Source: an uncultured Gammaproteobacteria bacterium (GTDB lineage Bacteria > Patescibacteriota > Patescibacteriia > Magasanikbacterales > GWA2-37-8). From it: a stretch of 64,000 nt of DNA. Each line of letters opens with the position of its first letter. Position 1 is the first letter of the stretch. Positions 3,261 to 32,855 of this stretch are shown here, in pieces. Under the pieces are notes generated by a model, which made no database searches, was not told the DNA's origin, and saw only the letters and a program-made list of their open reading frames with translations. A program made the position numbers and the translations under genes. The stretch covers positions 978-64,977 of the forward strand of contig CAZWKA010000008.1 in NCBI GenBank assembly GCA_964634875.1, in the 5' to 3' direction.

Positions 3261-3324
3261 AGTATAGCTAGTATCCTACCAATTTTAGCTATTTCTGGCA
3301 ACCTCAAATCAGCCCTGTTTTAGC

Positions 3325-3352: not shown

Positions 3353-3363
3353 GGGGGCATTTC

Positions 3364-3436: not shown

Positions 3437-3460
3437 CATTTTATCTATAACCCAGAGCAT

Positions 3461-3757: not shown

Positions 3758-3761
3758 ATAA

Positions 3762-3792
3762 AAATCCGCCGCTGAGGCGGATTTTTATTTTT
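3762..3792 (+). terminator. Rho-independent terminator
   Basis: Hairpin CCGCC-GCUGA-GGCGG followed by a T-run. Confidence 0.6.
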
Positions 3793-3825
3793 ATAAAACA
3801 AAACTTTAAAACTTGTAATTTTGGC

Positions 3826-4833: not shown

Positions 4834-4851
4834 CACAAATTACTTTCTTGT

Positions 4852-5942: not shown

Positions 5943-6377
5943 TTAGAGCAGTTGAGTAAAGCCAAGATCTACTAAAGTCGCGACAGCTTTCTTAAAGCCA
6001 TCCTCTCTGATCAACATGTAATCCTTCGAATAAGTTGAGACAATGGAGAGATTCAACTGAGCATCTGCTATCGCCTGACTAATCGTCGCCAAAAAACCAA
6101 CAGCGTACAACGGCACTGAAGCATGCAAAGTAATCAGGCGATAAAAATATCTATTTTTTTCAAGGAGCTGCAGCTCCGCTAACAAGGCCTCTTTGGTTAC
6201 AACCGTAATTTCATCTGCATCATGCGTTATCAGGAAATGACTACCTTTTACCGGCACCACTGACACTTTCGCATACACATACCTGTCTTCCTCTACGCGA
6301 AAACTACTTTGGTGGATTATTTCTTCAATAGGACTTTGCACACCGCTTTCGCTTACAGAAGATACTTGCCGGTCCAA
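5943..6377 (-). CDS. ACT-domain-like small regulatory protein (hypothetical)
   Basis: 144 aa. The C-terminal half has a beta-alpha-beta-beta-alpha-beta ACT-like pattern (..ITLHASVPLYAVGFLATISQAIADAQLNLSIVSTYSKDYMLIRE..). Weak assignment. Confidence 0.35.
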   Translation of the reverse strand: MDRQVSSVSESGVQSPIEEIIHQSSFRVEEDRYVYAKVSVVPVKGSHFLITHDADEITVVTKEALLAELQLLEKNRYFYRLITLHASVPLYAVGFLATISQAIADAQLNLSIVSTYSKDYMLIREDGFKKAVATLVDLGFTQLL

Positions 6378-9145
6378 CTTTTCTTACACTTCCGGATGTC
6401 GTCCGGAGTACCTACCGCAACGACTTCCCCGCCCCCGTCGCCACCTTCGGGCCCCATATCAATCACCCAATCGGCCGAACGGATGAGTTCGACATTGTGC
6501 TCGATGATAAGAACGCTATTCCCCTTTTCAACCAAACGATCTAAGACTTGCAGCAACCGTTTGATATCTTCAAAGTGCAAACCGGTCGTTGGCTCATCGA
6601 GAATATACAAAGTCTTGCCAGTAGAATGACGCGATAGCTCCAAAGATAATTTGATACGCTGCGCTTCACCGCCCGAAAGGGTGGTGGCGGACTGTCCGAG
6701 CTGGACATAACCCAAACCAACTTCGCGCAGCACATTCAATTTTTCCGCAATCGGTGCAACATCAGCAAAGAATTGATAGGCTTCTTCAACAGTCATGCGC
6801 AAGACGTCCGCAATATGCTTATTGTGGTAGTGTACTTCCAGAGCTTCGCGGTTATACCGCCAGCCATTGCACTCATTACATTCCACGAACACATCAGCCA
6901 AAAATTGCATCGGGATACGGATAGAACCGTCCCCTGAACAGGCTTCACAGCGTCCACCACCTTTAACGTTAAAACTAAATTTACCCGCGTCATACCCGCG
7001 CATACGGGCTTCCGGCAGCGCAGCAAAAAGGTCGCGGATCAAATTAAAGATACCGGTATAGGTCGCTGGGTTCGAACGCGGCGTGCGGCCGATCGGTGAT
7101 TGGTCGATCGCAATAACTTTATCAATATTTGATAAACCCTTAATAGATTTGTGAAGCCCAGGCTCTTCTTTGGCTCGATAAAAATGCTTAGCCAGAGCCT
7201 TACTCAGGATATCAATAATCAGAGTTGATTTTCCTGAACCCGACACCCCGGTAACACAGACCAGCTGACCCAGGGGAATTTCAACATCAACATTCTTTAG
7301 ATTGTGTGCCTGAGCACCTGTAATAACAATTGATTTCGTACCTGCAGCGCCTTTTTTAGGCATCTTTTTGCGGCGAGCAATCGTTGTCCGGCCAAACAAA
7401 TAATCTGCCGTGAGGGATTGTTTTACCTTCTTCAAATCCGGCAAGGTTCCGGCTCCCATCAGCTCACCTCCATACACCCCGGCTCCCGGACCAATGTCAA
7501 TCAGATAGTCAGCGGCATGCATCATTGTCGCATCGTGTTCAACAACGACAATCGAATTACCAAGGTCACGGAGATATTTTAATGTTTCAATTAATTTTTT
7601 AGTGTCACGCGGATGGAGACCGACTGACGGCTCATCTAAAATATAGATAATACCAGACAAACCACTGGATAATTGCGTCGCCAAACGCACGCGGGTAACC
7701 TCACCACCCGAAAGCGTATTCATTGCACGATCTAAGTTCAGGTAACTTAAACCAACCCGCTCCAAATTACCAAGACGAGGGACGATTTCTTTGGTAATAA
7801 GCTGCATGATCTTTGACTTGGAAGCTTTTGCTTTGGTTTGCAAAATCTCTTTCATCTCTTCGATACTCATGGAGGCGAGTTCTGAGATTGTATATTCCCC
7901 AATTCTTACTGATAAAGACTCGGGACGCAAACGCTTGCCTTGGCAGACAGAGCAGATCTTTTCGCGCATATACTGTTCAATTTCTTTGCGCACATACTCC
8001 GAAGTCGTCTCGAGGTGTTTGGCCATGAGGTCTGGGATAACCCCTGGGAACGTGATTTTTTTACCTTCTACCAGGAAGGTTTCCGGTCCCGTGCCATACA
8101 AAATGACATTAAGCGCTTTGGCTGCAAGATCAGCAACCGGAGTATTTAGTGAGAAGCCGTGGCGTTCCGAAACTGCTACTAATAATTTTTGGTAGGCATT
8201 ATGACTTCCTGTAATACGTGTCCAGGGCTGAATCGCTCCTTCCGCGAGGGTCAAGCGCATATTCGGAATAACCAAGCTAGCATCAACTTCCATCGTAACC
8301 CCAAGCCCAGTACAGCGCTGACAAGCGCCGTAGGGACTGTTGAAACTAAAACTACGCATATCAAGAACTGGCATGGTACGTCCGCAGTTGGAGCACAAGC
8401 CGATCGTTGAAAAAACGTGCGTTTTTTCATTGATGAGCACATGAACCAAGCCATCACTGAGGTCCAGAGCAACTTCTACCGGCTTCGTCGGGTCTTGTTT
8501 TTTAACATCAACAATCTTGCCGATCAACAACTCAACGTTATAGGTACTTGTTGCGTCAAAATCATACTGGGGAAGCTCGTTGATTTTGAGCTCTTCACCG
8601 TCGATACGGAGCCACTCATAACCCGACTTCTCTACTTGTTCAATGAGCGCCTTATGATCAACTTTGCCTTTACGGATAAGAGGCGCATAAATAAGCACAG
8701 GTGAATTTTTTCGCGCCAACGTTCGAACTGCTTCCACGACTTCGCCAGACGTATGGGTTTCAACTAAAATATGGCAATCAGGGCAATACTGTTCGCCGGC
8801 TCTTGCAAACAACAAGCGTAAATAGTCATACACCTCGGTAACTGTACCGACAGTAGAACGCGGGTTTTGAGTAAAAATTTTCTGATCAATTGCAATTGTC
8901 GGAGACAGCCCATCAATCGAATCAACATCGGGCTTATCACGAGTTTCCATGAATTGGCGGGCGTAGCTTGACAGCGACTCAGCATAACGGCGCTGGCCTT
9001 CGGCGTAGATCGTATCAAATGCCAAGCTTGATTTTCCCGAACCTGATAAACCAGTGACGACGACTAGTTTATTTTTAGGAATTTCAATTGTCAGGTTCTT
9101 CAAGTTATGGACGCGCGCTCCTTTAATGACAATGTTTTCAGACAT
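6353..9145 (-). CDS. uvrA: Excinuclease ABC subunit A (canonical, with insertion domain)
   Basis: 930 aa. Tandem ABC ATPase with Walker [24 protein letters not shown] and [10 protein letters not shown], zinc modules CxxC, and the UvrA C-terminal ..SWTGKYL. Confidence 0.95.
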
Positions 9146-18717: not shown

Positions 18718-19182
18718 ATGTCTCGAGCCGTCAGTATCGCAACTACCTTGACCAGCCTCCTCATTGGCGGGTGTAGCTTCACCACCCCTGCTACGGCACC
18801 GCCAAGTGATCCATTCTCGATGTGCGACGCCAACGAGGTCTGCCTCGCGATCGAGCTCCGGACACCGAACAGCACGCCGAATCGCTTCGAACAGTGTGAC
18901 AGCATCAGCGGAACAGCCATCGCGACCGATTGTGACGGTGCGACCATCAAGATGGCCGACCTCAAGATCGGGGCGCCGAAGTGTGTGATACCAGCCTACT
19001 GGACGATTCACGTCCCGCCGCTCTCCTGTCTACTCACATTCGATATCACCGCCGAAGCGTTCCTGAGCGAGAACAGCGAGTTCGTCACTGGCGTAGAACG
19101 TATTGCCGACATCGGACCAACCCAGCTCGACGGCCGGGAGCGTACCAAAATTCAGATGGTTCTTACCTCCAGCGCCAAGTAG
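18718..19182 (+). CDS. Lipoprotein (hypothetical), high-GC foreign-looking gene
   Basis: Signal peptide plus lipobox LLIGGC. SD AAGGAGAG 6 nt before the ATG, and a TTGAAA-17-TAGGGT promoter-like sequence upstream. GC about 58-60% vs ~46% in flanks. Confidence 0.55.
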   Translation: MSRAVSIATTLTSLLIGGCSFTTPATAPPSDPFSMCDANEVCLAIELRTPNSTPNRFEQCDSISGTAIATDCDGATIKMADLKIGAPKCVIPAYWTIHVPPLSCLLTFDITAEAFLSENSEFVTGVERIADIGPTQLDGRERTKIQMVLTSSAK

Positions 19183-19254
19183 CCCCCCCTGTTAGCGTGG
19201 AGCGAGAAAAATTTTCACTTCTCGCTCCACCCCCTCCCTCATACTAAAAATAAA

Positions 19255-19283
19255 AAACTCCTGACACCGGGAGTTTTTTTATT
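19255..19283 (+). terminator. Rho-independent terminator
   Basis: Hairpin AACUCCUG-ACACC-GGGAGUU followed by UUUUUUU. Confidence 0.6.
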
Positions 19284-19385
19284 CTGTTCCTCAATACTTT
19301 TTTTAAAAGTGCTAAGGAACATCGGCCAGGCGCGAATCGAATCGCGGCCTGACCGGAAACCCTGCGGGTGCAGGGTGTGGGAAAG

Positions 19386-19853
19386 TTATTTCTTGCGAAG
19401 GGCGGCGTGGTAGGCGCCGTCGACCTGCACCGTGCAGATCATCTTGACGGTGGTTGCGCCAGTATAGTAGGTGCTTCCGACTTCGATTCGCTCCGAAGCC
19501 ATCATCCCCATCTCCCCCGTGGCGAGCGAGTGGATCTGCTCACCCGCCTTGCAGATCAGAAGCCCGATCTGGTGCGGACGCGAATCGCTCGCATCACTTC
19601 CATACAGGAGAGCGAGCTTTTCGCCATCGGGGATATTCCGCACCGTGACCCACGCCAGCTGCTCGGGGATAAGCCCGGTGGCGGTAAAATCGGCGTAGTA
19701 GTAATCCTCGAGCTTAGAGTCGTAGATCGGAATCGGCTCGAGCACCTCACCGCAGCCAACGAGCGCGAGAGCGACGAAGGCGAAGGTGGCGATGCGGGCG
19801 GAGACGGAAGCAAACTTCTTGTTCATGACTTTGGACTCCTGGGACGAAAACAC
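19386..19853 (-). CDS. Lipoprotein (hypothetical), high-GC foreign-looking gene
   Basis: Signal peptide plus lipobox ALVGCG. AGGAG SD 9 nt upstream on the minus strand. High GC. No domain recognised. Confidence 0.55.
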   Translation of the reverse strand: MFSSQESKVMNKKFASVSARIATFAFVALALVGCGEVLEPIPIYDSKLEDYYYADFTATGLIPEQLAWVTVRNIPDGEKLALLYGSDASDSRPHQIGLLICKAGEQIHSLATGEMGMMASERIEVGSTYYTGATTVKMICTVQVDGAYHAALRKK

Positions 19854-20058
19854 GCGTATCCGACGCGTGACGGGTCAAGGCGATACCGTGCGCAGAGCAA
19901 AGCAAATTTCGCTCTCCTCTGCGCACAGAATACACTACACCCAATTGTAAAGAACAAAAAACCTGCGGCTTTTGCCTACAGGATGCCTCAGCATAGCACA
20001 CTTTTAGGCTTTTGTCAAGGGATACACGGAATATTTTGGCTAAAATGAGCCAAAATAC

Positions 20059-20112: not shown

Positions 20113-22746
20113 CTATTTCAACATTCGTTTCAAATATTCACCCGTAAAACTGCCTTTTTTAATCGACACTTCTTCAGGCGTGCCGGTCGCAATTACCTGT
20201 CCACCGCGATCACCTCCTTCGGGTCCGAGATCAATAATCCAGTCCGCGCACTTAATGAGATCGAGGTTGTGCTCGATAACCATAACTGTATTCCCCTGCC
20301 CGACCAACCGATCAAGTACACCAATTAATTTACGCACATCATCATAATGCAAACCAGTCGTCGGCTCATCAAGCAAGTATAACGTCTTCGTTGTACCGTG
20401 CTTTGAAAGTTCTTTGGAAAGTTTGATACGCTGCGCCTCACCACCCGACAAGGTCGTAGCTGATTGACCCAGCGTCAAATAATCCAAACCGACTTCATTC
20501 AAAATTTTGAGCTTATCATTAATAAGTGGGATATCGCGGAAAAATTCTTCCGCTTCTTCCACGGTCATTGCGAGTACCTCGGCGACATTTTTGTCTTTGT
20601 ATTGTACTTGCAAAATTTCGTTAGTAAACCGCTTGCCCTTACAAACATCACAAAGTATCTCAACACTTGGCAAAAAGTGCATTTCAATTTCGAGCGTCCC
20701 GCGGCCTTCACAATTTTCACACCGTCCACCCGGCACATTGAAACTAAAGCGACCACTCTTGAAGCCGCGTAATTTTGCTTCAGCCGTAGAGGCAAATAAT
20801 TCACGAATGAGGTCAAATGCTTTGGTGTACGTTGCCGGATTCGAGCGCGGCGTGCGGCCGATCGGACTTTGATCGATCACAATCATGCGATCAATGTATT
20901 CGGTACCGGTAATTTCTTTGTGCTTACCGACTTCTTTGTTCATGTGATAAAAACGATTGGCCAACGTTTTTTCCAGCACATCATTCATGAGCGTCGATTT
21001 ACCCGAACCCGACACCCCAGTCAAACACACAAACCGGCGCAGGGGAATTTCCACGGAAATATTTTTGAGGTTATGCTCTTCCGCACCTTTGATTTTTATT
21101 TTTGGTGTTGAGGCATCTACCTTACGACGCTTCTCTGGAATTTCAATTTTCAAGTCCCCTCGTAAATATTTGCCGGTAATAGATTTTTTAGGATCACCCA
21201 GCACTTTACACCCCCAGGTCTCATTTTCATTTACTACTGCCTTGCGTTTGGTCGCAGCACTGAGTGCGCCCGACGCAATCTGCTTCCCTTGCAACAATTT
21301 CGTCAGCGGACCCGAAAACACAACGTCGCCGCCATGCTTTCCCGCTGCCGGCCCAATGTCCACAACCCAATCACTCACGAGTATCGTATCTTCATCGTGC
21401 TCAACTACAATAATCGTATTACCAATATCACACAGGCTCCGCAGTGTTTTTACCAACTGATCATTATCTTTTTGATGAAGCCCAATCGTTGGCTCATCGA
21501 GTACATAGAGCGCACCAACCAAACGCGTCCCAACCTGCGATGCGAGCCGGATACGTTGCGCTTCACCGCCCGACAAAGTCCCGGCTTTCCGATTCAAATT
21601 TAAATAATACAAACCGACATTAAACATGAACTGCAACCGGTTGCTGATTTCTCGGAAGACTGCACCGGCAATCTCCACGGTTTTGGCATCGAGCGACAAC
21701 TCGACTTCAGCAAAAAATTCACGCGCTTCACCGATTGTGAGACTCGTCACTTCCCAAATATTTTTTTCTGCCACGCGTACACTCAAAGCCGTTTTGTTCA
21801 AACGCTTGCCTTCACAGACGGTACAAATTTCGGTACTGAACAGCTCCCGGGTACCAAGGCCTGTGCAGGCTTCGCAATAGCCATACGGACTATTGAAACT
21901 AAATAAACGCGGCTCGATCTCGGGAAAACTAAATCCGTCGTTTGGGCACGAGTACTCGGTACTGTAAACATGCTCGGCCTGCCCCGGGTACGCCACTGTC
22001 GCCAAACCATTTGATAAATCTACTGCTTTATTCACTGCTTCCGTCAAACGCAGCACATCGTCATCGCCCCATTTTTTAACGAGCGGGATTTTATCAACAA
22101 CCACCTCGATCGTGTGCTTGTTGTTTTTGGACAATAAAACGCGTTCACGCAAACTTTTAATAGTTCCATCCACCCGCACTTCCAAAAAACCTGAATTATA
22201 TAAATCATAGAGCATTTGGTAATACTCGCCTTTCCGGCCGCGCACGACCGGCGAAAAAATAGTCAGGTGGTTTTCTTCGACTTTAATTTTTTTAGTTTTT
22301 TCATTCTGTAATTTCGTTTCTGCCATAATCCGATCGATCATCTGGTCGACCGTCATCTTTTCGATCTTGGTACCACAGACCGGGCAATAGGGATTCCCCA
22401 CGCGCGCAAACATAACGCGCAGGTAATCATAAATTTCCGTGATAGTCGCGACTGTCGAGCGCGGGTTGGCGCTATGCGCTTTCTGGTCAATTGAGATAGC
22501 TGGCGACAAACCCTCGATCTCATCGACATCTGGTTTTTGCATGCCACCTAAAAACTGCCGGGCATACGCCGACAAACTTTCGATGTAGCGCCTCTGGCCT
22601 TCGGCAAAAATGGTATCAAACGCAAGGCTCGATTTACCCGAACCTGACAGGCCGGTAAAAACAATCATTTTGTTACGGGGCAATTCGAGACTAATATTCT
22701 TGAGATTATGCTCCCGTGCCCCTTTAATAATAATTTTTTCTTGCAT
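20113..22746 (-). CDS. UvrA paralog (tandem ABC ATPase) apparently lacking the insertion domain
   Basis: 877 aa. N-terminus is nearly identical in pattern to UvrA ([23 protein letters not shown]), with a second Walker [11 protein letters not shown] and C-terminal ..FTGEYL. Relative to the canonical UvrA at 6353-9145, the ~105 aa between the ..CTGLG zinc module and the CxxCxGKRL motif are absent. The UvrB-binding-domain region appears present. Confidence 0.85.
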   Translation of the reverse strand: MQEKIIIKGAREHNLKNISLELPRNKMIVFTGLSGSGKSSLAFDTIFAEGQRRYIESLSAYARQFLGGMQKPDVDEIEGLSPAISIDQKAHSANPRSTVATITEIYDYLRVMFARVGNPYCPVCGTKIEKMTVDQMIDRIMAETKLQNEKTKKIKVEENHLTIFSPVVRGRKGEYYQMLYDLYNSGFLEVRVDGTIKSLRERVLLSKNNKHTIEVVVDKIPLVKKWGDDDVLRLTEAVNKAVDLSNGLATVAYPGQAEHVYSTEYSCPNDGFSFPEIEPRLFSFNSPYGYCEACTGLGTRELFSTEICTVCEGKRLNKTALSVRVAEKNIWEVTSLTIGEAREFFAEVELSLDAKTVEIAGAVFREISNRLQFMFNVGLYYLNLNRKAGTLSGGEAQRIRLASQVGTRLVGALYVLDEPTIGLHQKDNDQLVKTLRSLCDIGNTIIVVEHDEDTILVSDWVVDIGPAAGKHGGDVVFSGPLTKLLQGKQIASGALSAATKRKAVVNENETWGCKVLGDPKKSITGKYLRGDLKIEIPEKRRKVDASTPKIKIKGAEEHNLKNISVEIPLRRFVCLTGVSGSGKSTLMNDVLEKTLANRFYHMNKEVGKHKEITGTEYIDRMIVIDQSPIGRTPRSNPATYTKAFDLIRELFASTAEAKLRGFKSGRFSFNVPGGRCENCEGRGTLEIEMHFLPSVEILCDVCKGKRFTNEILQVQYKDKNVAEVLAMTVEEAEEFFRDIPLINDKLKILNEVGLDYLTLGQSATTLSGGEAQRIKLSKELSKHGTTKTLYLLDEPTTGLHYDDVRKLIGVLDRLVGQGNTVMVIEHNLDLIKCADWIIDLGPEGGDRGGQVIATGTPEEVSIKKGSFTGEYLKRMLK

Positions 22747-22861
22747 ATAAATGACAAAAAGACCCGAAAATACAGGCCAATGGATGGAATAAAGGAAGAA
22801 AAAGGACTACTCGTAAGTGTACGGGAGACATTTTTATTTGTCAACTAAGCCAAAAAAGTGC

Positions 22862-22890
22862 TTGACAAAACCCTTTTTTTGTGCTATACT
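22862..22890 (+). promoter_or_regulatory. Sigma70-like promoter (TTGACA-17-TATACT)
   Basis: TTGACA 22862-22867 and TATACT 22885-22890. It drives the small ORF starting at 22920. Confidence 0.55.
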
Positions 22891-22919
22891 TTACTTGGAT
22901 AGTATCAACTTTTAATTAT

Positions 22920-23222
22920 ATGCTTGAAGGAAAACCTCGCCTCGACCTCATTACCCAAAAAGCCGCTATTTTAAAGGAAAAAACTGCTTCTATCGGCCTT
23001 GACCATGTCACCGACGCTGCAACTGCCGACAAGATTTTAGCTACTCACCAGCGCGATATGACGACTCTCGCCAACGAACAAGCTATCCAGGAGGCTCGCG
23101 CTTTTAATGACAAAAATAAAAAAATGGCTACGAGTGAACTGGCCTCTGCTACCCAACAAGAGATCCAGGCTTTGCTCGAACAAATTGATAAGATTCCTCC
23201 TAATACTCCATCGCTGAATTAA
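22920..23222 (+). CDS. Small coiled-coil-like protein (hypothetical)
   Basis: 100 aa from the first ATG after the predicted TSS (the track ORF start at 22881 lies inside the -10 box). Followed directly by a terminator. No domain recognised. Confidence 0.4.
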   Translation: MLEGKPRLDLITQKAAILKEKTASIGLDHVTDAATADKILATHQRDMTTLANEQAIQEARAFNDKNKKMATSELASATQQEIQALLEQIDKIPPNTPSLN

Positions 23223-23228
23223 ATTTTC

Positions 23229-23254
23229 GACCGCCCTTTCGGGCGGTTTTTTTA
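23229..23254 (+). terminator. Rho-independent terminator
   Basis: CCGCCC-UUUC-GGGCGG followed by UUUUUUU. Confidence 0.6.
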
Positions 23255-23298
23255 TCCCTGAAAAAGCATTGACTTTTATACCTAGTTATGCTAGCTTA

Positions 23299-23340
23299 AA
23301 ATGATGCTGATTCCTGCAAGGCATCAGCATTTTTTTATAC
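23299..23340. terminator. Second bidirectional terminator-like hairpin
   Basis: AAAAU-AUGCUGAU-(11 nt loop)-AUCAGCAU-UUUUUUU, an 8-bp perfect stem with an A-run upstream and a T-run downstream. Confidence 0.4.
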
Positions 23341-23610
23341 GAAGTCAGTTCTTTAACGAGTTCATTGACAAGTTACACCAAAATCACCTGTTCACCTAAG
23401 AGGCCGAATTGCGCTTTTTAGACTGCTCACACCTAAAAAGTGTTTTCGGTCTCTTAAGGTAACTCAAAAGAAAAATACGGAGGAACATCACCGAAAATTT
23501 CCCACAGCTTCGGCTCGAGGAAGACTTCGGAAAAAAAATAGATCATGCAACAAACACCTTTCACACGTTCAACCAACAACGGCAGGTAACCGCCCCTCGA
23601 AGGCAATGGA

Positions 23611-26079
23611 GTGACTCCCATGGCAGCACGCGGACACCCCACAATTGGAGCCCGGTTCGGAGCATTCTACGCGCTCCTGTGTGCGCTCGTCGCGCGAGCG
23701 AACGAGCGACCCGCCATCCCGGACGACGACAAGTTCCCGCCCGGCGTCCCCTACTCCGTCGGCAACGAGCTAGCGGAGCGCTTCAGCTTCTACGGCTTCA
23801 AGACGATCTTGAAGCAGTACCTGACGGCCCTCCTCCTCAACTTCGTCAACGAGGCGATGCTCCCCGCATCGGTCGTCGCCGACGCGATGGTGAAGAGCAC
23901 GGAGTACGTGCACCTCTTCAACGCGGCCGTCTACTCCTTCCCGCTGATCGGCGCCCAGATCGCTGATCGCTACCTCGGCAAGTACCGTACGATCTACTAC
24001 GTGTCGATCGGGTACGTGATCGGCCACGCCATCCTCGGTGTCGCCACTCACTTCGGCACCATCCACCTGTACGAGGCGGCCAAGATCTCCTTCGGCCTCG
24101 GCCTCGGCCTCATCGCCGTCAGCGCCGGCGGCATCAAGCCGTGCGCCTCCTCGAACCTCGGCGACCAGTTCCCGCCCCTCAGCAAGCTCATCCTAATCGC
24201 CTTCTCGCTGTTCTACTTCGCCATCAACTACGGCTCGCTCGGCGCCACGATCCTGACGCCGATCATGCTCGACAAGTTCGGGCCCGAGGTCGCTTTCGGC
24301 CTGCCCGGCATCGCGATGGCGATCGCCACGATCGTCTTCCGCATCGGCGAGAAGAAGTTCATCAAGGCGCCGCCCACCCCGGGCGGCAAGCTCGGGCTCC
24401 TCGATAGCCTCGTCACGACGCTGCTCCTGTCCCCGCTGTTCGCCACCGTCATCGGCTACTTCGTGCTCTGGCAGAAGGACGCCGAGATTGCCGAGAAGGC
24501 ATTCAACAAGGCTAACGAGGTGGCGATCCGCGCCGCCGAGGCTCTCGGCCAGACACCGCCGGAGTTCCACATCACGTGGAGCTTCGTCCAGAACTACCTC
24601 ACCAGCCACTGGTGGCTCTTCGCCCTGACCGCCGCCGCCATCACGCTCGGCTCCATCATCTTCATTGTCCGTCAGCGGCGGCAGCCCGACAATACGAGCT
24701 TCCTTCCCATCCTCATCTGGTCGCTGAAGAACCGACATCTGCGCAAGCAGGGCGACGACTTCTTCGATCCGGCCCGCAATAAGTTCGGCAAGGAAGCCGG
24801 TGACGGCCCCCCGGCCGTGCTCCGCATCATGGTGGTCTTCGGGATGGTCGCCGTGTTCTGGGCGCTCTTCGACCAGCACTCCTCGACCTGGGTCGACCAG
24901 GCCAAGATGATGGCTCTCCACCTTATCGTCCCCGCGTGGCTGGGGTACTGGACCCTCGCCACGTTCACCATCATCATCCTCTACGTGGGCATCGGGCTGT
25001 TCTGCCGCCTGGCCAACCGCCCGCCCAAGCGCCTGACCACCTACACCATCCTCGGTCTGCTCGCCTTCTCCGGCTTCCTCTCCGGCGGCCTCGACCTCTT
25101 CGGCCCGCCGATCGGCAACCGGGTCATCCCGGTGATCGTGAAGACGGACACGCCCACGAACCTGAACGAGGCGAACACCGTCATCAAGAAGAAGCTCCGC
25201 GAGGAAGTCAACGTCTCGGTGATCGTCGTCCGTTCGTCGGTCTACAACCCCAAGAAGGAGAAGACCACTCTCACGACGGCCGACTTCCGCCGTGCCACTC
25301 CGCTGGACGCGCTGATCGCGACCATCGGCCTTCCGGACGCCATGACCCCCGCCAACCTCGCGGAGGCCGCGCGTCTCGGGGTCGAGCTGAAGAACTACTC
25401 GAGCGTCAGCGCCTTCCAGGCCGACATCGAGGCCCGGCGTACCGTCAAGCTCAAGGAGCAACGGCCGCACACCCTCACGCTCATGATTTCCCCGTCGCAA
25501 CCCCAGGCGGCCAACCCGCTCTTCGTCATGATCATTATCCCGCTCCTCACCCTCATCCTCGGCTTCATCGCCACGCGCTACGGGATTGTGATCCGGCCGC
25601 TCTACATCATGGCCGTAGGCATGTTCCTCACTGCCTTCTCGTTCGTGATCGCCGCTCTCGTGCAGCGCCACGTGCAGGAGTCAGGTGAGGGCGTGGTCCA
25701 CGTGCTGTGGCAGCTGCCGCAGTACTTCAGCATGACGGTGGCCGAAGTGATGGTATCGATCACCGGCCTCGCCTTCGCCTACACCCAGGCCCCGCGCGCC
25801 ATGAAGGCCACCGTGACCGGCTTCTTCAACTTCACCGTGGCGCTCGGCAACCTGATCGTGGCCTTCCTCGCCCCGCTCGAAAAGCTCAGCCTCGCCTACT
25901 TCTTCTGGGTGTTCGCTGGCATCCAGGGTTTCGCCGCAATCATCTTCGCCATCCTCGTCTACTACTACGTGCGGCGGCTCAAGACGGACGAGCGGAAGGC
26001 CGAGAAGGCCACCCTGAGCGCCACCCCGTTCATCATCGACACCATACAGGCGCTCGAGGGCGAGAAGAAGTTGCCCTGA
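23611..26079 (+). CDS. POT/PTR2-family proton-dependent oligopeptide transporter, unusually long (822 aa) with a large hydrophilic insert
   Basis: PTR2 signature motifs GNELAERFSFYG, GGIKPCASSNLGDQF, FSLFYFAINYGSL and FWALFDQ. About 66% GC and SD GGAG upstream. A ~150-200 aa non-membrane segment (about nt 25130-25500) lies between late TM helices. Many overlapping ORFs on both strands are artefacts of the high GC. Confidence 0.8.
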   Translation: MTPMAARGHPTIGARFGAFYALLCALVARANERPAIPDDDKFPPGVPYSVGNELAERFSFYGFKTILKQYLTALLLNFVNEAMLPASVVADAMVKSTEYVHLFNAAVYSFPLIGAQIADRYLGKYRTIYYVSIGYVIGHAILGVATHFGTIHLYEAAKISFGLGLGLIAVSAGGIKPCASSNLGDQFPPLSKLILIAFSLFYFAINYGSLGATILTPIMLDKFGPEVAFGLPGIAMAIATIVFRIGEKKFIKAPPTPGGKLGLLDSLVTTLLLSPLFATVIGYFVLWQKDAEIAEKAFNKANEVAIRAAEALGQTPPEFHITWSFVQNYLTSHWWLFALTAAAITLGSIIFIVRQRRQPDNTSFLPILIWSLKNRHLRKQGDDFFDPARNKFGKEAGDGPPAVLRIMVVFGMVAVFWALFDQHSSTWVDQAKMMALHLIVPAWLGYWTLATFTIIILYVGIGLFCRLANRPPKRLTTYTILGLLAFSGFLSGGLDLFGPPIGNRVIPVIVKTDTPTNLNEANTVIKKKLREEVNVSVIVVRSSVYNPKKEKTTLTTADFRRATPLDALIATIGLPDAMTPANLAEAARLGVELKNYSSVSAFQADIEARRTVKLKEQRPHTLTLMISPSQPQAANPLFVMIIIPLLTLILGFIATRYGIVIRPLYIMAVGMFLTAFSFVIAALVQRHVQESGEGVVHVLWQLPQYFSMTVAEVMVSITGLAFAYTQAPRAMKATVTGFFNFTVALGNLIVAFLAPLEKLSLAYFFWVFAGIQGFAAIIFAILVYYYVRRLKTDERKAEKATLSATPFIIDTIQALEGEKKLP

Positions 26080-26270
26080 CCCCCAACCCAGGTGACCCGG
26101 CTGCCCCGCATGTTGTGCGGGGCAGCCGGCCCTTCCCTTTCTCCGCTTCACCGCGGCACTAGGGAAGAGGCAAGTGTAACTTGTCGCCTTCTTATCTGCT
26201 TCAGTCTGGAGCCAATAAGAAGACCCGAAATTATCCCGCCGAGCGGCGAGTATTTTATTTTCCTCAACCG

Positions 26271-26299
26271 TTGACATCACCGTAAAATCATGCTAACTT
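26271..26299 (+). promoter_or_regulatory. Sigma70-like promoter (TTGACA-17-TAACTT)
   Basis: TTGACA 26271-26276 and TAACTT 26294-26299, upstream of the second transporter gene. Confidence 0.4.
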
Positions 26300-26432
26300 C
26301 CTAAGTTAAGTTTTTTAAGGTACACCTTAACTATTCTCTTTGAAAACGTTAGCCGCTTGAAAACGTTTCATATCCTCGACCTGAGGATTGTGGGACACAA
26401 CAAGCTACTAGCAACACGCATGGAGGTTGAAC

Positions 26433-27827
26433 GTGAACAACAACCGACCCGACCTGTCGCGAGCACTGCGAAGCGCTCTTCAGGAGATCATCGCCCCGTT
26501 CCGCGATTTCATCCATGCACCGCGGGCGCTCTGGGGCGTGAACATCCCCTACTTCTTAGAAGGGCTCGTCTACTTTGGCATCCTGACTGTCCTCACGAAA
26601 TTCCTGTCCGAAAATGTCGGCCTTGGCGACATTACCGGCGGCTGGGTCGTAGGAACATTTACCGGCCTGATCACTGGGACAATGTTTCTCTTGGGCGGAA
26701 CGGCTGACCGTTGGGGCGTGCGCAAAGCGATTATCATCTCGCTGACGCTCATCTTATTAGGACGGATCATGCTCAGCTTGGGCGAACTGATGCACCTGGG
26801 AAACGGCTTGTTCGGCCCGCTCTTTAACCTCAGCTGCGCCGGACTCTTCATTGTTGCCATTGGGTACGGGATGTACCAGCCTGCGGCCTACGCCGGCGTG
26901 CGCCAGTTCACGAACGAAAAGACGGCGGCGATGGGTTACGCAATGGTCTACGCCCTCATGAACTTGGGTGCGTTTGGTTCGGGAATCATCTCCCCAATCA
27001 TCCGCCTCATCAGCAAGAACGCTTTTCCACCGAACGGCATCACGGGCGTTTTCTGGACCTACGTCGTGATCACCGGACTCGCGCTGATGCTGACCTTTGT
27101 CCTCCTGACACCAAAAACGGTACGGGCAAGCACGGCAACGAAGCTCGTTTCGGTCACGTCGCCAGTGTCTGAAAAGCCGCCACCTTTTTTCTCGAAGCGT
27201 TGGTTCAACGAGCACCCGCTCACGGACCTTCGGTTCACCTTTTTCATCTTCATCCTGATCCCGGTGCAGACCCTGTTCGCCCACAACTGGCTCACACTCC
27301 CCCTCTACATTGAGCGAGCCTACGCGGGCAATGCGAACTGGGTCAGCCAGAACTTCGAGTTCTTTGGCAACCTCAACCCGCTTCTCATCTTCATCCTGAC
27401 ACCGCTCGTCGCGGCTCTGACCGCAAAAGTGCCGGTCTTCAAGATGATGATCATCGGGACGCTCATAATGGCCGCACCGACCTTCCTCCTATGTCTCGGC
27501 CCCAAGCCCTGGGTCTTATTCATCTACATCTTCACGATGTCGGTTGGCGAAGCGCTGTGGCAACCCCGGTTCCTGCAGTACGCTTCCGAGATCGCGCCTG
27601 AAGGTCGGGTCGGCATGTATCAGGGCGTTGCCCAGCTTCCCTGGTTCCTCACCAAACTGGTGACTGCCGTGTACTCAGGCTGGTTCCTGAAGCACTACTG
27701 CCCCGCGACCGGCCCCAAGCACACCGAGGCCATGTGGTTCATCTACGGCCTTATCGCTCTGGTGAGCCCGATCGGCCTCTACCTGGCTCGCGGCTGGGTT
27801 GGCCGGTCGATTAACACGAAGCAGTAG
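26433..27827 (+). CDS. Second POT-like MFS transporter (12-TM, ~465 aa)
   Basis: GGTADRWGVRKAI matches the POT GGxxADxxxGxRKxI motif, and the hydropathy pattern is MFS-like. Start taken at the GTG 6 nt after a perfect GGAGG SD (the track uses TTG at 26427). GC about 58%. Confidence 0.65.
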   Translation: MNNNRPDLSRALRSALQEIIAPFRDFIHAPRALWGVNIPYFLEGLVYFGILTVLTKFLSENVGLGDITGGWVVGTFTGLITGTMFLLGGTADRWGVRKAIIISLTLILLGRIMLSLGELMHLGNGLFGPLFNLSCAGLFIVAIGYGMYQPAAYAGVRQFTNEKTAAMGYAMVYALMNLGAFGSGIISPIIRLISKNAFPPNGITGVFWTYVVITGLALMLTFVLLTPKTVRASTATKLVSVTSPVSEKPPPFFSKRWFNEHPLTDLRFTFFIFILIPVQTLFAHNWLTLPLYIERAYAGNANWVSQNFEFFGNLNPLLIFILTPLVAALTAKVPVFKMMIIGTLIMAAPTFLLCLGPKPWVLFIYIFTMSVGEALWQPRFLQYASEIAPEGRVGMYQGVAQLPWFLTKLVTAVYSGWFLKHYCPATGPKHTEAMWFIYGLIALVSPIGLYLARGWVGRSINTKQ

Positions 27828-27905
27828 ACCCTCCCCGCGACGATCTGCACCACACAGAACGTCGCGTATCTCCACTAGAAAGTTTTACAAATTTTTAGTG
27901 GAGAA

Positions 27906-27939
27906 AAAATATCCTGGCTACACTCAGGATATTTTTTAT
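27906..27939 (+). terminator. Rho-independent terminator after the transporter pair
   Basis: AAUAUCCUG-(loop)-CAGGAUAUU followed by UUUUUU. Confidence 0.55.
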
Positions 27940-27940
27940 T

Positions 27941-27972
27941 ACAAAAACACCCTCTACATAATCGAGGGTGCT
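27941..27972 (-). terminator. Rho-independent terminator of uvrB (minus strand)
   Basis: CACCCUC-UACAUAAUC-GAGGGUG, with a U-rich run following on the minus strand. Confidence 0.5.
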
Positions 27973-27982
27973 GTACACTATT

Positions 27983-30076
27983 TTACTTCTTTTTCGCCGG
28001 TCGTCCTTTTTTACTTTTCTCCACTTCCCCACTCGACTTCTGCCGTGCGGTCAATTCACGAATCTCATCACGCAGTATCGCCGCCAGCTCGAATTCAAGT
28101 CCTTTGGCCGCATCCTTCATCTGCGCTTCTTTGTCTTTAATAATCACGCTGAGCGGCCGATCGTCCCCAAGCGTATCAAGGTTCGCAAGTTCGGCGCGGC
28201 GACGTTTATGTTCCTTTGTATTTCCACCGGGTGAAGTTTCGCTAATACCAAACTCTTCCAAAATATTACGAATTGTTTTTTGAATTGTTTTTGGAGTAAT
28301 ACCATGTTCCTCATTATACGCCAGCTGAATTTTACGGCGACGATTGGTTTCGGCAATCGCACGCTCGATCGAACCAGTGCTGTGGTCAGCATACAGCACC
28401 ACCTGCCCATTCACATTACGCGCCGCGCGGCCGATCGTCTGGATCAAACTCGTTTCACTGCGCAAAAACCCTTCTTTATCAGCGTCAAGAATTGCAACCA
28501 GCGACACTTCTGGCATGTCGAGTCCTTCACGCAAAAGATTAACTCCAACCAAAACATCAATCTTGCCTTGACGCAACTCCATGATTACCGTAATACGATC
28601 AAGCGTCTGGACATCGCTGTGCAAAAATTTTACTTTCACTTTCTTCTCTTCCAAAAATTGCGTCAGGTCTTCAGCCATGCGCTTCGTCAGTGTAGTGACC
28701 AGCACGCGCTCTTTGGCCGCAATGCGTTCATCAATCCGGATCATCAGGTCTTCGATCTGCGAAAGGCCGTTGTCAGCTTTGCTCGGCGTGATCGGGCGAA
28801 TAATAACTTCCGGATCAATTAAACCTGTCGGACGGACGACTTGCTCCACCACTTGCTTACTTTCACTAATTTCGTATTCGGTCGGGGTTGCCGAAACATA
28901 CACCACCTGGTCAACTAATTTTTCAAATTCTTCGTAGCGCAGCGGTCGGTTATCACGCGCGCTCGGCAACCTAAACCCGTGTTCGACCAACGTGTCTTTA
29001 CGTGCTCGGTCGCCATTATACATAGCACGCACCTGCGGCACTGTTACGTGCGACTCATCAATAATGGTTAAGAAATTTTTTGCCCCATGCTTGAAATAAT
29101 CGAGGAGCGTAAACGACGGTTCACCTTCGGACCGACCTTCAAAATGACGGGAATAATTTTCAATACCGTTGCAATACCCAATATTTTTAATCAGTTCCAA
29201 ATCATAACTCACCCGACGCTTCAAACGGTCGCGTTCCAGTAATTTTCCTTGCCGGTCAAAAAGCGCTAACTGTTGTTCAAGCTCATCTTTGATACGGACG
29301 AATGCACGTTCCCGCGCTTCCTCGCCAACCACATAATGTTTTGCCGGAAAAAGCCACACATCTTCTTGCTCGCGTTTAATTTTGCGCGTCAGCGGATCAA
29401 CCTGCTCAATACGATCGATGTGCGCGCTGATCTCGAAACGATAAATCATCTCTTCGTTCACCGGCATAATCTCGAATACCTGCCCCTGCATCCGAAAGGT
29501 ACCGCGGCGCATGTCTGCGGTTGTACGTTCGAATTGCATGCCAATGAGCTGTTCCATCATGCCGCGCCGGTCGAGATTGTCGCCCACCCGCAGATGCAAA
29601 ACGTCTTTTTCATAGGCCGCCGGCGAACCCAAACCATAGATTGCCGAAACTGACGCCACAATAATAACATCACGCCGCGTCAACAAGGCCTGTGTACACG
29701 CATGGCGCAGACGATCTATTTCTTGGTTGATCTGCGCTTCTTTTTCAATATACGTATCACTGGTAGGAATATACGCTTCCGGCTGATAGTAGTCGTAGTA
29801 GCTCACAAAATACTCGACGACGTTCTCGGGAAAAAAATCACGGAATTCGTTACAGAGCTGGGCCGCCAGCGTCTTGTTGTGCGCGATCACCAGCGTCGGC
29901 ATCTGGACACGCTCAATCACGTTCGCCATTGTGAACGTTTTACCCGAACCGGTAACCCCAAGCAGGGTTTGCTTTTTAAACCCTTCGGCAAGACCTTGAG
30001 TCAACTGATCAATGGCTTTAGGCTGATCACCAGCTGGTTTGTATTGTGAAACGATTGAAAACTTCATACAACCCAT
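27983..30076 (-). CDS. uvrB: Excinuclease ABC subunit B
   Basis: Helicase motif I GVTGSGKTFTMANVI, a beta-hairpin region, and a C-terminal UVR domain (..ELAAILRDEIRELTAR..). True start probably the MKFSIV.. Met at 30067. Confidence 0.95.
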   Translation of the reverse strand: MGCMKFSIVSQYKPAGDQPKAIDQLTQGLAEGFKKQTLLGVTGSGKTFTMANVIERVQMPTLVIAHNKTLAAQLCNEFRDFFPENVVEYFVSYYDYYQPEAYIPTSDTYIEKEAQINQEIDRLRHACTQALLTRRDVIIVASVSAIYGLGSPAAYEKDVLHLRVGDNLDRRGMMEQLIGMQFERTTADMRRGTFRMQGQVFEIMPVNEEMIYRFEISAHIDRIEQVDPLTRKIKREQEDVWLFPAKHYVVGEEARERAFVRIKDELEQQLALFDRQGKLLERDRLKRRVSYDLELIKNIGYCNGIENYSRHFEGRSEGEPSFTLLDYFKHGAKNFLTIIDESHVTVPQVRAMYNGDRARKDTLVEHGFRLPSARDNRPLRYEEFEKLVDQVVYVSATPTEYEISESKQVVEQVVRPTGLIDPEVIIRPITPSKADNGLSQIEDLMIRIDERIAAKERVLVTTLTKRMAEDLTQFLEEKKVKVKFLHSDVQTLDRITVIMELRQGKIDVLVGVNLLREGLDMPEVSLVAILDADKEGFLRSETSLIQTIGRAARNVNGQVVLYADHSTGSIERAIAETNRRRKIQLAYNEEHGITPKTIQKTIRNILEEFGISETSPGGNTKEHKRRRAELANLDTLGDDRPLSVIIKDKEAQMKDAAKGLEFELAAILRDEIRELTARQKSSGEVEKSKKGRPAKKK

Positions 30077-31295: not shown

Positions 31296-32321
31296 TTATT
31301 TCTCAGGCGGCAAATAAACTGCATCGTCGTACACGTTGACCAGAGGGAAAATTTTTACCTCATTAACACTCAGGTTTGATCCGAAACTCCGCAGGTCGAT
31401 ATTTTTTGAGGCTAGTGACGTAAAATTATCAAGCGATAACGGCAGGAGGCCGACCAGGTTCTGATCCAAATACAGTCCCACATAAAACCGGGCAGTTTTA
31501 TAACTGTAGGCACTTTGGTTTGTTAGGGTGAAACGAATTATCTCAGCGTTAGCGCCACTCTCATCAAACTGGGGAATAAACTCAAAATTGCTCACCAAAA
31601 AATTAAGGCGTTCCCGCTGCCAGGTTTCTGGATCCAAAAACTCACGGTTCGACAAACGCTTCCAAGCAATATTATCAATCGTTAGGACTGCGCTATCCGG
31701 ATAGGTGTCAGCACTTAACCCCAAATAAGCCACCGGGCGGTTCTCGCGCGGCAAAAGCGTGGTCGTTTGGGACGGCGTCTTAGTTCCATTAAAACTAAAA
31801 TAATAATCGAAGGTGACCAAAAACCGCGGGTTGGAATTAACGACGTCAGCTACCAAATCGTACTTACCAACTCCGCCCGAGTACACTGCTGTACTCAGTA
31901 CTTCAAGCGGCTTAGCGGCAAAACGACTATTGAGTACGGTATAATTTTCAAAACTCGTTAAACCCCGGTCGACCTCAGCGCTTTCTTGTAAACCAAATAT
32001 AAGATACTTCCCCAGCGCAAACAACGAAAAGAAAGCTGTCCCAGCTGCCAGCGCCATAAGCGTCCCCACCAAAATCCGATACAACAGGAGCCGGTGACGG
32101 ACATACCAAAAACCATACTTTAGCTCTTGGCCAGTAAACTCACCGCTCGGATCAACATACTTCTCATAGTTCACTTTCTTGGCAGCAACGACTGGTGCGC
32201 GTCCTGTCGGGGAAGTGGAATGGTTGTTGGCATTATAAATATTGAGCACAAAATATGTAGGATATGATACTCCTAAGTATAGCCCAAAATTTCCATTTTG
32301 ACCACCACCCTTGACAGCCAC
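31296..32321 (-). CDS. Membrane-anchored hypothetical protein (true N-terminus uncertain)
   Basis: The track ORF runs to 32747, but its first ~128 codons overlap the rnpB gene and promoter on the opposite strand. The real start is therefore downstream: a candidate GTG at 32321, or the Met at 32057 just before the TM helix. The large C-terminal extracytoplasmic domain has no recognised family. Confidence 0.4.
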   Translation of the reverse strand: MAVKGGGQNGNFGLYLGVSYPTYFVLNIYNANNHSTSPTGRAPVVAAKKVNYEKYVDPSGEFTGQELKYGFWYVRHRLLLYRILVGTLMALAAGTAFFSLFALGKYLIFGLQESAEVDRGLTSFENYTVLNSRFAAKPLEVLSTAVYSGGVGKYDLVADVVNSNPRFLVTFDYYFSFNGTKTPSQTTTLLPRENRPVAYLGLSADTYPDSAVLTIDNIAWKRLSNREFLDPETWQRERLNFLVSNFEFIPQFDESGANAEIIRFTLTNQSAYSYKTARFYVGLYLDQNLVGLLPLSLDNFTSLASKNIDLRSFGSNLSVNEVKIFPLVNVYDDAVYLPPEK

Positions 32322-32325
32322 CTGA

Positions 32326-32354
32326 TTGACAAGAACGATGAAATATCGTATACT
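32326..32354 (+). promoter_or_regulatory. Sigma70-like promoter (TTGACA-17-TATACT) for rnpB
   Basis: TTGACA 32326-32331 and TATACT 32349-32354, about 8 nt before the P1 helix 5' strand. Confidence 0.55.
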
Positions 32355-32361
32355 ATTAACT

Positions 32362-32828
32362 CTATTACTGGTAATCGCCGGGCAAAAAGGCTCGGAGGAA
32401 AGTCCGAACACCCTTGTTTTTAACAAGACAATGGCAGTGGGTAACCCCCACCCCCCGACCTGTGAAGTATCGGGGAGGGACAGTGGCACAGAGACAATAC
32501 TAGCCCCGTCCACTTCGGTGGATGGGACCAAAGGTGAAAAGTGTATGGAGGTTCTGGTTCTCGAGACCAAAGCTACCATACTCGCCCTGGCTGTGAAGCC
32601 AGTGGCAGTGCTAAACCCTGCCTGGTGCAAGAGCAGCGTGCCGCGAAGCGTCAGAGAGGCGCTTTGCCTGGCGCGAAAAGTTCGCTCGCTTGGCTTGCCC
32701 AAATTCTCACGAATGAAGGCAGCCTGATTGCAACAGTAATGCTGCAACTAGAAAAATGATTATCTTCCCAATCTGTCTGCCGATAGGCAAGCCCGGTTGG
32801 GAAACAAAATTCGGCTTATAGTAATAGC
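32362..32828 (+). ncRNA. rnpB: RNase P RNA (bacterial type A-like), ~467 nt
   Basis: P4 5' strand GGAGGAAAGUCCGAACAC. P4 3' strand ACAAAAUUCGGCUUAUAG pairs with it, including the characteristic bulge. P1 pairing CUAUUACU (32362-32369) with AGUAAUAG (32820-32827). Internal matches to conserved stretches (GGGUAACCCC, AAGGUGAAAAGUG, UAAACCCUGCCUGGUGCAAGAGCA). Promoter upstream and terminator downstream. Confidence 0.8.
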
Positions 32829-32830
32829 GC

Positions 32831-32855
32831 AAAACCTTCCGCAAGGAAGGTTTTG
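32831..32855 (+). terminator. Rho-independent terminator of rnpB
   Basis: CCUUCC-GCAA-GGAAGG followed by UUUU. Confidence 0.55.

Follow-up and report, generated by a model that had tools for sequence, protein, structure and literature searches.

How do two GC-rich transporter genes come to lie between uvrA and uvrB in a bacterial chromosome of lower GC content, and what do they do there? The question is raised by contig CAZWKA010000008.1 (assembly GCA_964634875.1) of an uncultured member of the Patescibacteria, also called the candidate phyla radiation (CPR), of which we analysed a stretch of 64,000 nucleotides, hereafter the window. Its uvrA-uvrB interval carries gene 1 (23620..26079, plus strand), which specifies a predicted peptide:H+ symporter of the POT (proton-dependent oligopeptide transporter) family with 819 amino acids, and gene 2 (26433..27827, plus strand), which specifies a POT-related transporter of the major facilitator superfamily (MFS) with 464 amino acids. 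Members of the CPR generally lack amino-acid biosynthesis and depend on other cells for building blocks; their partners, and the ways in which they gain uptake functions, are mostly unknown. We propose as the likely answer that this block is a peptide-uptake gene slot in the CPR chromosome, filled by horizontal transfer.

The host is placed in the Patescibacteria by its UvrB, whose best named match among GTDB species representatives (71%) is from 'Ca. Magasanikbacteria', followed by Uhrbacteria, Saccharibacteria and other Patescibacteria at 55-60%. The slot is flanked on the left by uvrA (20113..22746, minus strand, an open reading frame (ORF) of 877 amino acids) and on the right by uvrB (27983..30076, minus strand, 697 amino acids), after which comes an ftsW/rodA-type gene. 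A GC profile computed over 200-nucleotide segments gave values of 0.60-0.68 over 23600-26200 and of 0.555-0.63 over 26400-27900, against a window mean of about 46%. The DNA before, between and after these two stretches is AT-rich (GC 0.35-0.49), the spacer upstream of gene 2 having a GC of 0.42-0.48, and the high-GC patch reported in a preliminary description of the locus is confirmed. At third codon positions the GC content (GC3) reaches 0.920 in gene 1 and 0.777 in gene 2, while the 44 other ORFs of the window average 0.473 with a standard deviation of 0.063; the two genes are thus offset by about 7 and 5 standard deviations, respectively.

Sharp GC steps at both ends of a block, in a window that derives from a metagenome assembly, are what would be seen if the block were an assembly chimera or a binning contaminant fused to CPR sequence. 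Logan contig L001 (SRR12762304), a second assembly possibly made from the same reads as the window, is 100% identical to window positions 20839-28649 (7811 bp) and runs across both GC junctions, from uvrA through gene 1 and gene 2 into uvrB. Both junctions therefore survive a second assembly, and an artefact is unlikely on that ground. Four assemblies of sister species, from other samples, also carry high-GC3 transporter genes in a similar patch between the same two host genes, and the spacers within the block are AT-rich and have motifs in common with those species. With these observations a chimera or contaminant becomes extremely improbable.

By sister species we mean those represented by L005 (GCA_964540825.1), L006 (Logan), L007 (GCA_964510495.1) and L008/L009 (JGI). 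Their contigs hold typical CPR genes, their UvrA proteins are 96% identical to that of the window (about 82% at the nucleotide level) and their UvrB proteins 91-96% identical. Nucleotide homology between the window and these species ends at about 22930 and picks up again at 27964-27983. Between uvrA and uvrB the window has a small ORF, the POT (gene 1) and the MFS transporter (gene 2); L005/L006 have a small ORF, a POT of 799 amino acids and an OPT; L007 has two OPTs, small ORFs and a sigma-like gene; and L008/L009 have a small ORF, a POT of 435 amino acids and a POT-like MFS transporter of 454 amino acids. The transporter genes in the slots of the sister species have GC3 values of 0.76-0.83, those of their host genes being 0.39-0.52.

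Read most simply, this pattern reflects repeated events of import and replacement at a single site. Had the slot instead been filled once, in a common ancestor, with the present differences due to divergence and loss, the shared layout (small ORF, transporter 1, transporter 2) and the OPT that the L005/L006 species and L007 have in common at 90% identity would find a ready explanation. Such a history is nevertheless very unlikely, since the cargo includes more than one family (POT or OPT) and, within a family, is far more divergent than the flanks: gene 1 shows 28-30% identity to the POTs of the sister species, and gene 2 shows 35-36% to the L008 MFS transporter (the sole cross-species MFS pair), against 91-96% for the flanking UvrA and UvrB. 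Moreover, gene 2 has 73% identity with a high-GC protein from elsewhere and only 36% with the MFS transporter in the same position in L008, and the L008 POT is 78% identical to a Myxococcales protein and 28% to gene 1.

The relatives of the cargo point to the kind of genome from which repeated import would have drawn. The closest relatives of gene 1 are only about 50% identical to it; three of them, which share an inserted domain described below, lie in contigs of 68% GC whose genes have GC3 values of 0.89-0.97. The GC contents of gene 1 at the three codon positions (GC1/GC2/GC3, 0.58/0.42/0.92) are close to those of the gene for one of these relatives, P0004 (0.61/0.43/0.93, in a 68% GC contig). 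The closest relatives of gene 2, 73% and 67% identical, are in contigs of 73% GC, next to electron transfer flavoprotein (ETF) genes, and its named relatives belong to the Myxococcota/Polyangia. The L008 POT (PTR2_435) is 78% identical to a protein of a 'Myxococcales bacterium' in a contig of 67.7% GC with the same GC1/GC2/GC3 profile, and the similarity to that contig is limited to the coding sequence. The contigs holding the nearest relatives of genes 1 and 2, which are of Planctomycetota/Myxococcota type, thus have 68-73% GC, non-CPR gene content and matching codon-position GC, from which we conclude that both genes are foreign to the 46% GC genome. This agrees with the earlier suggestion that a small-genome bacterium acquired importers from high-GC donors.

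It could be argued that the genes are native and owe their GC3 to local selection, or to biased gene conversion at a recombination hotspot. All slot cargo genes in every sister species have GC3 values of 0.76-0.92, and the OPT pair formed by OPT665 (L006) and OPT667 (L007), which is 90% identical, keeps a GC content at four-fold degenerate sites (GC4) near 0.8 in both members although 41% of these sites differ. The match at four-fold sites between these two species is 59% for the OPT pair and 42-50% for uvrA, uvrB and uvrC. A native origin is all the same quite unlikely, given that the nearest relatives of the three cargo genes tested (50-78% identity) are in high-GC non-CPR contigs with the same GC1/GC2/GC3, that the sister species do not have orthologous genes as cargo (different families, or 28-36% identity) and that the AT-rich spacers between the genes are unaffected. 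A eukaryotic or synthetic origin of gene 1, considered because a GC3 of 0.92 is combined with host-like GC1 and GC2, was rejected, the P0004 homolog in a native 68% GC contig having a matching profile; the modest GC1 and GC2 are attributable to the gene product being a membrane protein. Opposite-strand ETF genes follow both the gene 2 relative in L090 (2099-3910) and the relative of the L008 POT in L094 (5305-8448), a hint that the donors are related organisms.

If the coding sequences came from elsewhere, their surroundings appear to be resident. AT-rich DNA of host type and a conserved promoter layout (TTGACN15TGMTANNTT) precede all eight distinct slot transporter genes of the window and the sister loci; in the window this pattern occurs at five sites with at most one mismatch, against 0.71 expected. 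Exact matches form the predicted promoter-like sites of gene 1 (23269..23297, plus strand; TTGACT-N14-TGCTAGCTT, with an extended -10) and gene 2 (26271..26299, plus strand; TTGACA-N14-TGCTAACTT). Downstream of the promoter, most leaders have a hairpin at about the expected start of transcription, usually with a U-run after it. Next comes a box like TTGACAA, which reads TTGAAAA or TTTACAA in three leaders and is not apparent in one, and then a long imperfect hairpin; a stretch rich in A and C leads on to GGAG(G) and the start codon. The hairpin at the predicted 5' end of the gene 1 transcript (23304..23337, plus strand; ATGCTGAT/ATCAGCAT, then T7) lies in a region which is 77% identical over 74 nucleotides to the DNA upstream of the OPT669 gene of L007, and an attenuator or a 5' stabiliser are its candidate roles. 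That of gene 2 (26304..26332, plus strand; AGTTAAG/CTTAACT) has a stem that recurs, as AGTTAAAG/CTTTAACT and then T7, after the promoters of PTR2_799 in L005 and PTR2_435 in L008. A second TTGACA box as the -35 of another promoter was rejected by eye, there being no consistent -10 at 17 nucleotides downstream.

All eight long leader hairpins fold below their shuffled controls (z -2.8 to -5.6), and two types can be told apart. The type B leader of gene 1 (23365..23460, plus strand), comprising the box TTGACAAGT and a long hairpin with its stem at 23394-23460, has a minimum free energy (MFE) of -36.8 kcal/mol (z -5.4), and no shuffle folds as well. It occurs only here and before OPT669 of L007, with the same architecture and with compensatory changes in the stem, and was not found by the covariance models R1 and R2. 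R1 was built from three sister-species leaders only, and R2 adds the leader of the L008 MFS gene. The type A leader of gene 2 (26336..26417, plus strand) is an R1 match of 24.5 bits (E 0.005; MFE z -3.3), and R1 also finds the leader of the L008 POT with 36 bits. Over about 350 kb, which included the remaining window sequence and 12 further CPR loci, R1 otherwise gave only weaker reverse-strand echoes of the same hairpins and one match of E 4.2 in L021. In the five type A sequences, 93.6% of the cells are paired and 12 of the 22 pairs have changed on both sides; none of 500 shuffles reaches this value, and controls in which the alignment was slid are 31-48% paired.

These leaders, candidates for a new family of structured cis-regulatory RNA, may regulate expression, stabilise the mRNA or be bound by a protein. 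It is a real possibility, though one we lean against, that they are not dedicated regulatory RNAs at all, and that what was copied together with the promoter, as the slot was rearranged, were DNA palindromes or generic hairpins of a stabilising or terminator-like kind. Unpaired nucleotides such as AAACGGAAU are kept only in three close copies and not in those of L008 or the window; the sample comprises four species; the reverse strand scores too, as expected of a palindrome; and a scan of metagenome contigs with an exact pattern gave no further true copies. Against a generic hairpin stand the two-sided changes in 12 of the 22 pairs through which the stem is kept while the inner stem varies freely, the confinement of the element to the upstream regions of transporter genes in the roughly 350 kb searched, and its constant position relative to the Shine-Dalgarno sequence. 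No gathering-level match to the leaders was found in Rfam 15, the matches in E-value mode being far below the family cut-offs. Boxes for PyrR or CodY were also considered and rejected, the PyrR family of Rfam giving no match and no CodY-like box being visible by eye. In the metagenome contigs, the exact-pattern scan for the leader core (GTTAGCRGWGAGAAAYGGAA) gave two matches, both by chance, in coding or high-GC sequence.

The leader of gene 1 departs from the others in one respect. It has GGAGG at 23479-23483, where the others have their ribosome-binding site and start codon, and then some 125 nucleotides more, including an upstream ORF of 14 codons (23545-23589), ahead of the actual GGAG and ATG. 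This extra stretch (23479-23607) may be the scar of a coding-sequence replacement.

Downstream of gene 1 there is a GC-rich hairpin with a perfect 14-bp stem (26097..26129, plus strand; inverted repeat I11), which lies within a high-GC tail extending to about 26200 and probably arrived with the gene; it has no U-run. Gene 2 is followed by a terminator-like hairpin (27909..27938, plus strand; ATATCCTG/CAGGATAT, then T6) with too few G-C pairs for the terminator scan. The preliminary description, which gave both genes promoters and terminators of their own, is therefore borne out for the two promoter-like sites and for the T-run hairpin after gene 2, and not for the hairpin of gene 1. It had also set the end of the block 80 nucleotides before the uvrB terminator; the hairpin of the latter (27941-27970) is in fact about 10 nucleotides from that of gene 2.

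What do the two genes encode? The mechanical ORF of gene 1 starts at GTG 23611 and has 822 amino acids, the length first reported for it and the one from which amino acid numbers are counted here. The likely start is ATG 23620 (819 amino acids), 8 nucleotides past GGAG 23608-23611, in agreement with the public gene call P0001. The protein matches Pfam PF00854 (PTR2) with 220.4 bits (cut-off 27; E 4.7e-65), which confirms it as a POT. Its best NCBIfam match is TIGR00926 (2A1704, an oligopeptide:H+ symporter subfamily) with 289 bits against a cut-off of 821.6; on these scores it is a relative, and not a member, of that subfamily. The motifs listed for it previously, ELAERFSFY (amino acid 53), GGIKP (173), GDQF (184) and FYFAINYGS (201), are all present, the ExxER motif reading E53-L-A-E56-R57-F-S-F-Y, and the signature motifs are invariant in an alignment of 82 sequences of the family. 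Among solved structures the closest by sequence are PepTSo (E 4e-74) and PepTXc, then PepT2 and PepT1 (E 1e-59 to 1e-48), with POTs of the YePEPT/DtpA type far behind (E 8e-21 and weaker).

An AlphaFold2 (AF2) model built on the same 82-sequence alignment had a mean predicted local distance difference test score (pLDDT) of 89 and a predicted template modelling score (pTM) of 0.88. Its best Foldseek match in the PDB is again PepTSo (E 1.8e-20; TM-score 0.75-0.78, target-normalised), and the top 50 matches are all POT, SLC15 or NPF transporters. The model has 16 long hydrophobic helices, namely transmembrane helices (TM) 1-6, HA, HB, TM7, two extra helices and TM8-12; the short loops that would lie inside have 2-10 Lys+Arg residues, and those that would lie outside have 0-1. 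The extra helices (amino acids 442-467 and 474-497; 24934..25101, plus strand), between TM7 and TM8, have best 19-residue Kyte-Doolittle means of 2.07 and 1.58 and are joined by the loop ANRPPKRLTT, with three Lys+Arg. HA/HB and the two extra helices are common to all relatives of about 650 amino acids from the Planctomycetota, Myxococcota and Verrucomicrobiota, and gene 1 belongs to this 16-helix subfamily. With ExxER, the lysine of GGIKP and FYxxINxGS all intact, and with a model that superposes on PepTSo, gene 1 most likely encodes a proton-coupled di/tripeptide symporter working by the usual alternating access of the MFS.

PepTSo of Shewanella oneidensis (PDB 2XUT/4UVM) and PepTXc (6EI3), the best matches in both sequence and fold, share with gene 1 the 12-helix MFS core, HA/HB and the ExxERFxYY, GGIKP and FYxxINxGS motifs. 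They differ in length (about 520 amino acids against 819), since gene 1 has a longer HA-HB loop, two more helices after TM7 and a domain of 120 amino acids before TM8. This domain (amino acids 504-625; 25120..25485, plus strand) is hydrophilic, as reported earlier, and its length is about 120 amino acids, not 150-200. It lies between the second extra helix and TM8, with five helices after it. In the model it has a b-a-b-a-b-a-b-a-b pattern with pLDDT 80-97, the only beta element outside it being a strand directly after TM7 (amino acids 437-441), and its fold matches the solved domain III of IF2/eIF5B. Among the 120 best matches of gene 1, a soluble domain at this site is found only in gene 1 and in P0002-P0004. 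The aligned inserts of these three score 17.3 (P0002), 37.2 (P0003) and 32.4 bits (P0004) against Pfam IF-2 (PF11987, cut-off 27), and the insert of gene 1 has no match to PF11987 even at E up to 10. A phmmer search with the insert alone (132 amino acids) against 1.84 billion representative proteins gave no match at E up to 0.001, the insert being too diverged for a single-sequence search. Helix parity and the distribution of Lys+Arg would put the domain outside the cytoplasm.

Could this domain be the bacterial counterpart of the extracellular domain of PepT1/PepT2, as the preliminary description supposed? The core of the transporter falls into the PepTSo/SLC15 branch, to which PepT1 and PepT2 (SLC15A1/2) also belong, and in both cases a soluble domain occupies a loop of the C-terminal bundle that probably faces out of the cell. 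The mammalian domain, however, is inserted at the TM9-TM10 junction and is made up of two trypsin-binding folds of Ig-like type (PMC4597091). In gene 1 the insertion is at TM7/TM8, after the two extra helices, the TM9-TM10 loop of the model has 6 residues, the fold resembles domain III of IF2/eIF5B and is not of the Ig type, and the homologous inserts of P0003 and P0004 pass the Pfam IF-2 cut-off. A shared origin with the PepT ectodomain is hardly credible in the light of these differences; the insert of gene 1 is a domain insertion independent of the SLC15 ectodomain. The preliminary description had been ready to give up its analogy if the insert proved both cytoplasmic and unlike the PepT ectodomains in fold; the second was found, and the first was not, the predicted placement being extracytoplasmic.

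In IF2/eIF5B/aIF5B, domain III (PF11987, the C1 subdomain) accompanies a GTPase and other domains, none of which is present in gene 1, where the insert is part of a membrane transporter and would face outward. A 16-helix POT with an IF2-domain-III-like ectodomain appears to be a new variant. It shows that soluble domains entered peptide transporters more than once, in a loop and with a fold other than those of mammalian PepT1/2, and the insert of gene 1 is useful for asking what such domains do; that it is a docking site for a partner, such as a peptidase or a binding protein, is a guess. In two of the three contigs with insert-bearing relatives, a gene with a Cu2_monoox_C domain directly follows the transporter gene (L002 3292-4155, L003 3809-4687), a pairing that is conserved in these donor-type genomes.

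Gene 2 likely starts at GTG 26433, 6 nucleotides past GGAGG 26422-26426, giving 464 amino acids as in P0138; both genes thus have the Shine-Dalgarno sequences first ascribed to them. It had been taken for the second of two tandem POT-family genes, and here the evidence points elsewhere. In Pfam its product matches MFS_1 only and has no match to PTR2, and the similarity to TIGR00926 is weak and N-terminal. A profile of its family (32 sequences) nonetheless finds, below E 1e-6, only POT structures in the PDB (E 4e-11 to 3e-7), and by hhalign it matches the gene 1 family over the full length (94.6% probability, E 7e-8). The motifs that carry proton coupling are degenerate. At the position of ExxER it has FLEGL (aligned as F-L-E-G-L-V-Y-F), at that of GGIKP it has GMYQP, with the lysine replaced by glutamine, and at that of FYxxINxGS it has MVYALMNLGA. 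Although some sources name its relatives 'POT family' or 'peptide MFS transporter', the profile matches and motifs make gene 2 a divergent POT-related MFS transporter with replaced proton-coupling residues and uncertain substrate and coupling, and not a member of PTR2.

From these results we propose that the lineage would repeatedly have replaced or added foreign transporter coding sequences between uvrA and uvrB, and that these would be expressed from its own promoter-leader modules. Gene 1 would import di/tripeptides with protons by alternating access and gene 2 a related substrate with altered coupling, and the imported peptides would benefit the cell as a source of amino acids. It is already known that reduced bacteria gain transporters by horizontal transfer; two variants that appear to be new are the refilling of one fixed slot with peptide importers of GC-rich phyla and the presence of a promoter-leader module before each import. 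The slot is a concrete and testable case of a reduced genome domesticating foreign genes, its cargo may point, at the genome level, to the lineages that served as donors or partners, and the leader is a candidate RNA element with a link to the uptake of peptides.

Several points weigh against this proposal. Neither the stretch 22600-28200 nor the genes next to it yielded a transposase or integrase, a tRNA or direct repeats at the flanks. The direction of transfer is read from composition, and the donor of gene 1 is unsampled, given the distance of its closest relatives. The divergence of OPT665 and OPT667 at four-fold sites, with GC4 retained, implies that some of the cargo is old and that high GC3 is not purely a mark of recency. 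The promoters, the transcript starts and the regulatory role of the leaders are predictions, and the type A covariation comes from five related sequences in an alignment that was fitted to the model. Finally, the outward orientation of the gene 1 insert is a prediction, made from the AF2 model together with helix parity and the positive-inside rule.

A bolder version would have a dedicated expression slot in which resident promoter-leader modules capture, again and again, promoterless coding sequences for transporters from the GC-rich bacteria on or beside which the cell lives, the leader being a new class of regulatory RNA. We regard this as unlikely. Were it true, the recurring donors of Myxococcota/Planctomycetota type would point to the host or partner of this CPR lineage, and the leader would tune peptide uptake to amino-acid supply.

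The slot filled by transfer resembles several known systems in part. Like the genomic islands of reduced symbionts, it has deviant composition, relatives in other phyla, variable content at one site and a plausible nutritional benefit; unlike them, it lacks an integrase, a tRNA target and a flanking repeat and consists of single coding units behind resident promoter-leader modules. As with integron cassettes, a single site gathers promoterless foreign coding sequences and resident signals drive their expression, but here each gene has its own promoter and the hairpins are 5' of the genes, downstream of these promoters. Integron attC sites were rejected, as the order of the core is wrong by eye (attC has AAC 5' and GTT 3') and no integrase-like ORF is present between or next to uvrA and uvrB. 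The leaders, finally, resemble the cis-regulatory 5' leaders and riboswitches of transporter genes in being structured and covarying, in keeping a constant spacing to the ribosome-binding site and in occurring only with one functional class of genes; they differ in having no Rfam 15 match and in the weak conservation of their loops outside close paralogs.

Other features of the slot and its surroundings may be listed more briefly. The first slot gene of the window is a small ORF of 100 amino acids from ATG 22920 (22920..23222, plus strand), which is of host composition (GC3 0.40) and is also called in L001. It has its own promoter at 22862-22890 (11 of 12 consensus positions) and a terminator (hairpin and T-run) at 23229-23248; it shows 38% identity to the h111 ORF in the same position in L008, and a Pfam search gave no match. 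The 799 amino acid POT of L005 (7007-9406, minus strand) is another enlarged POT at the same slot, with about 250 extra N-terminal residues, its PTR2/MFS matches starting near amino acids 260-300. Proteins with sigma-70 region 4 are encoded at slot edges or next to uvrA in L007 (2234-3028 and 12716-13267, both minus strand) and L008 (12717-13271, minus strand) and not in the window; a link between them and the conserved promoters is conceivable. Between uvrA and uvrC the content varies as well, with sigma-like genes in L007 and L008 and none in the window.

The nearest named relative (L010, 71% UvrB identity) was considered as a comparator and set aside, its genome having 35% GC and being too distant to inform; among its ORFs of at least 200 amino acids, no transporter gene was called next to uvrB. 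This Magasanikbacteria contig contains a patch of about 2 kb with 48% GC (3000-5000), which could be an RNA gene or another import.

Elsewhere in the window, a second UvrA-like gene (6353-9145, minus strand, 930 amino acids) lies 11 kb from uvrA. It has about 65% nucleotide identity to parts of uvrA, its cluster is named 'excinuclease ABC subunit A' and it is probably a class II UvrA paralog. A bacterial class A RNase P RNA was found at 32359-32834 (plus strand, 138.6 bits); at 476 nucleotides against a model of 367 positions it must contain insertions. There is an overlap with the 5' portion of the mechanical ORF 31296-32747 (minus strand), the true start of which must be further in. There is a tRNA-Ile with anticodon UAU at 3364-3437 (plus strand). 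A second stretch of deviant composition, patch A (18718-20048), contains small ORFs with GC3 values of 0.72 and 0.54 and no Pfam matches. Unlike the block between uvrA and uvrB (patch B), it aligns with L005-L007 at about 75% nucleotide identity and is therefore shared, and not a recent import.

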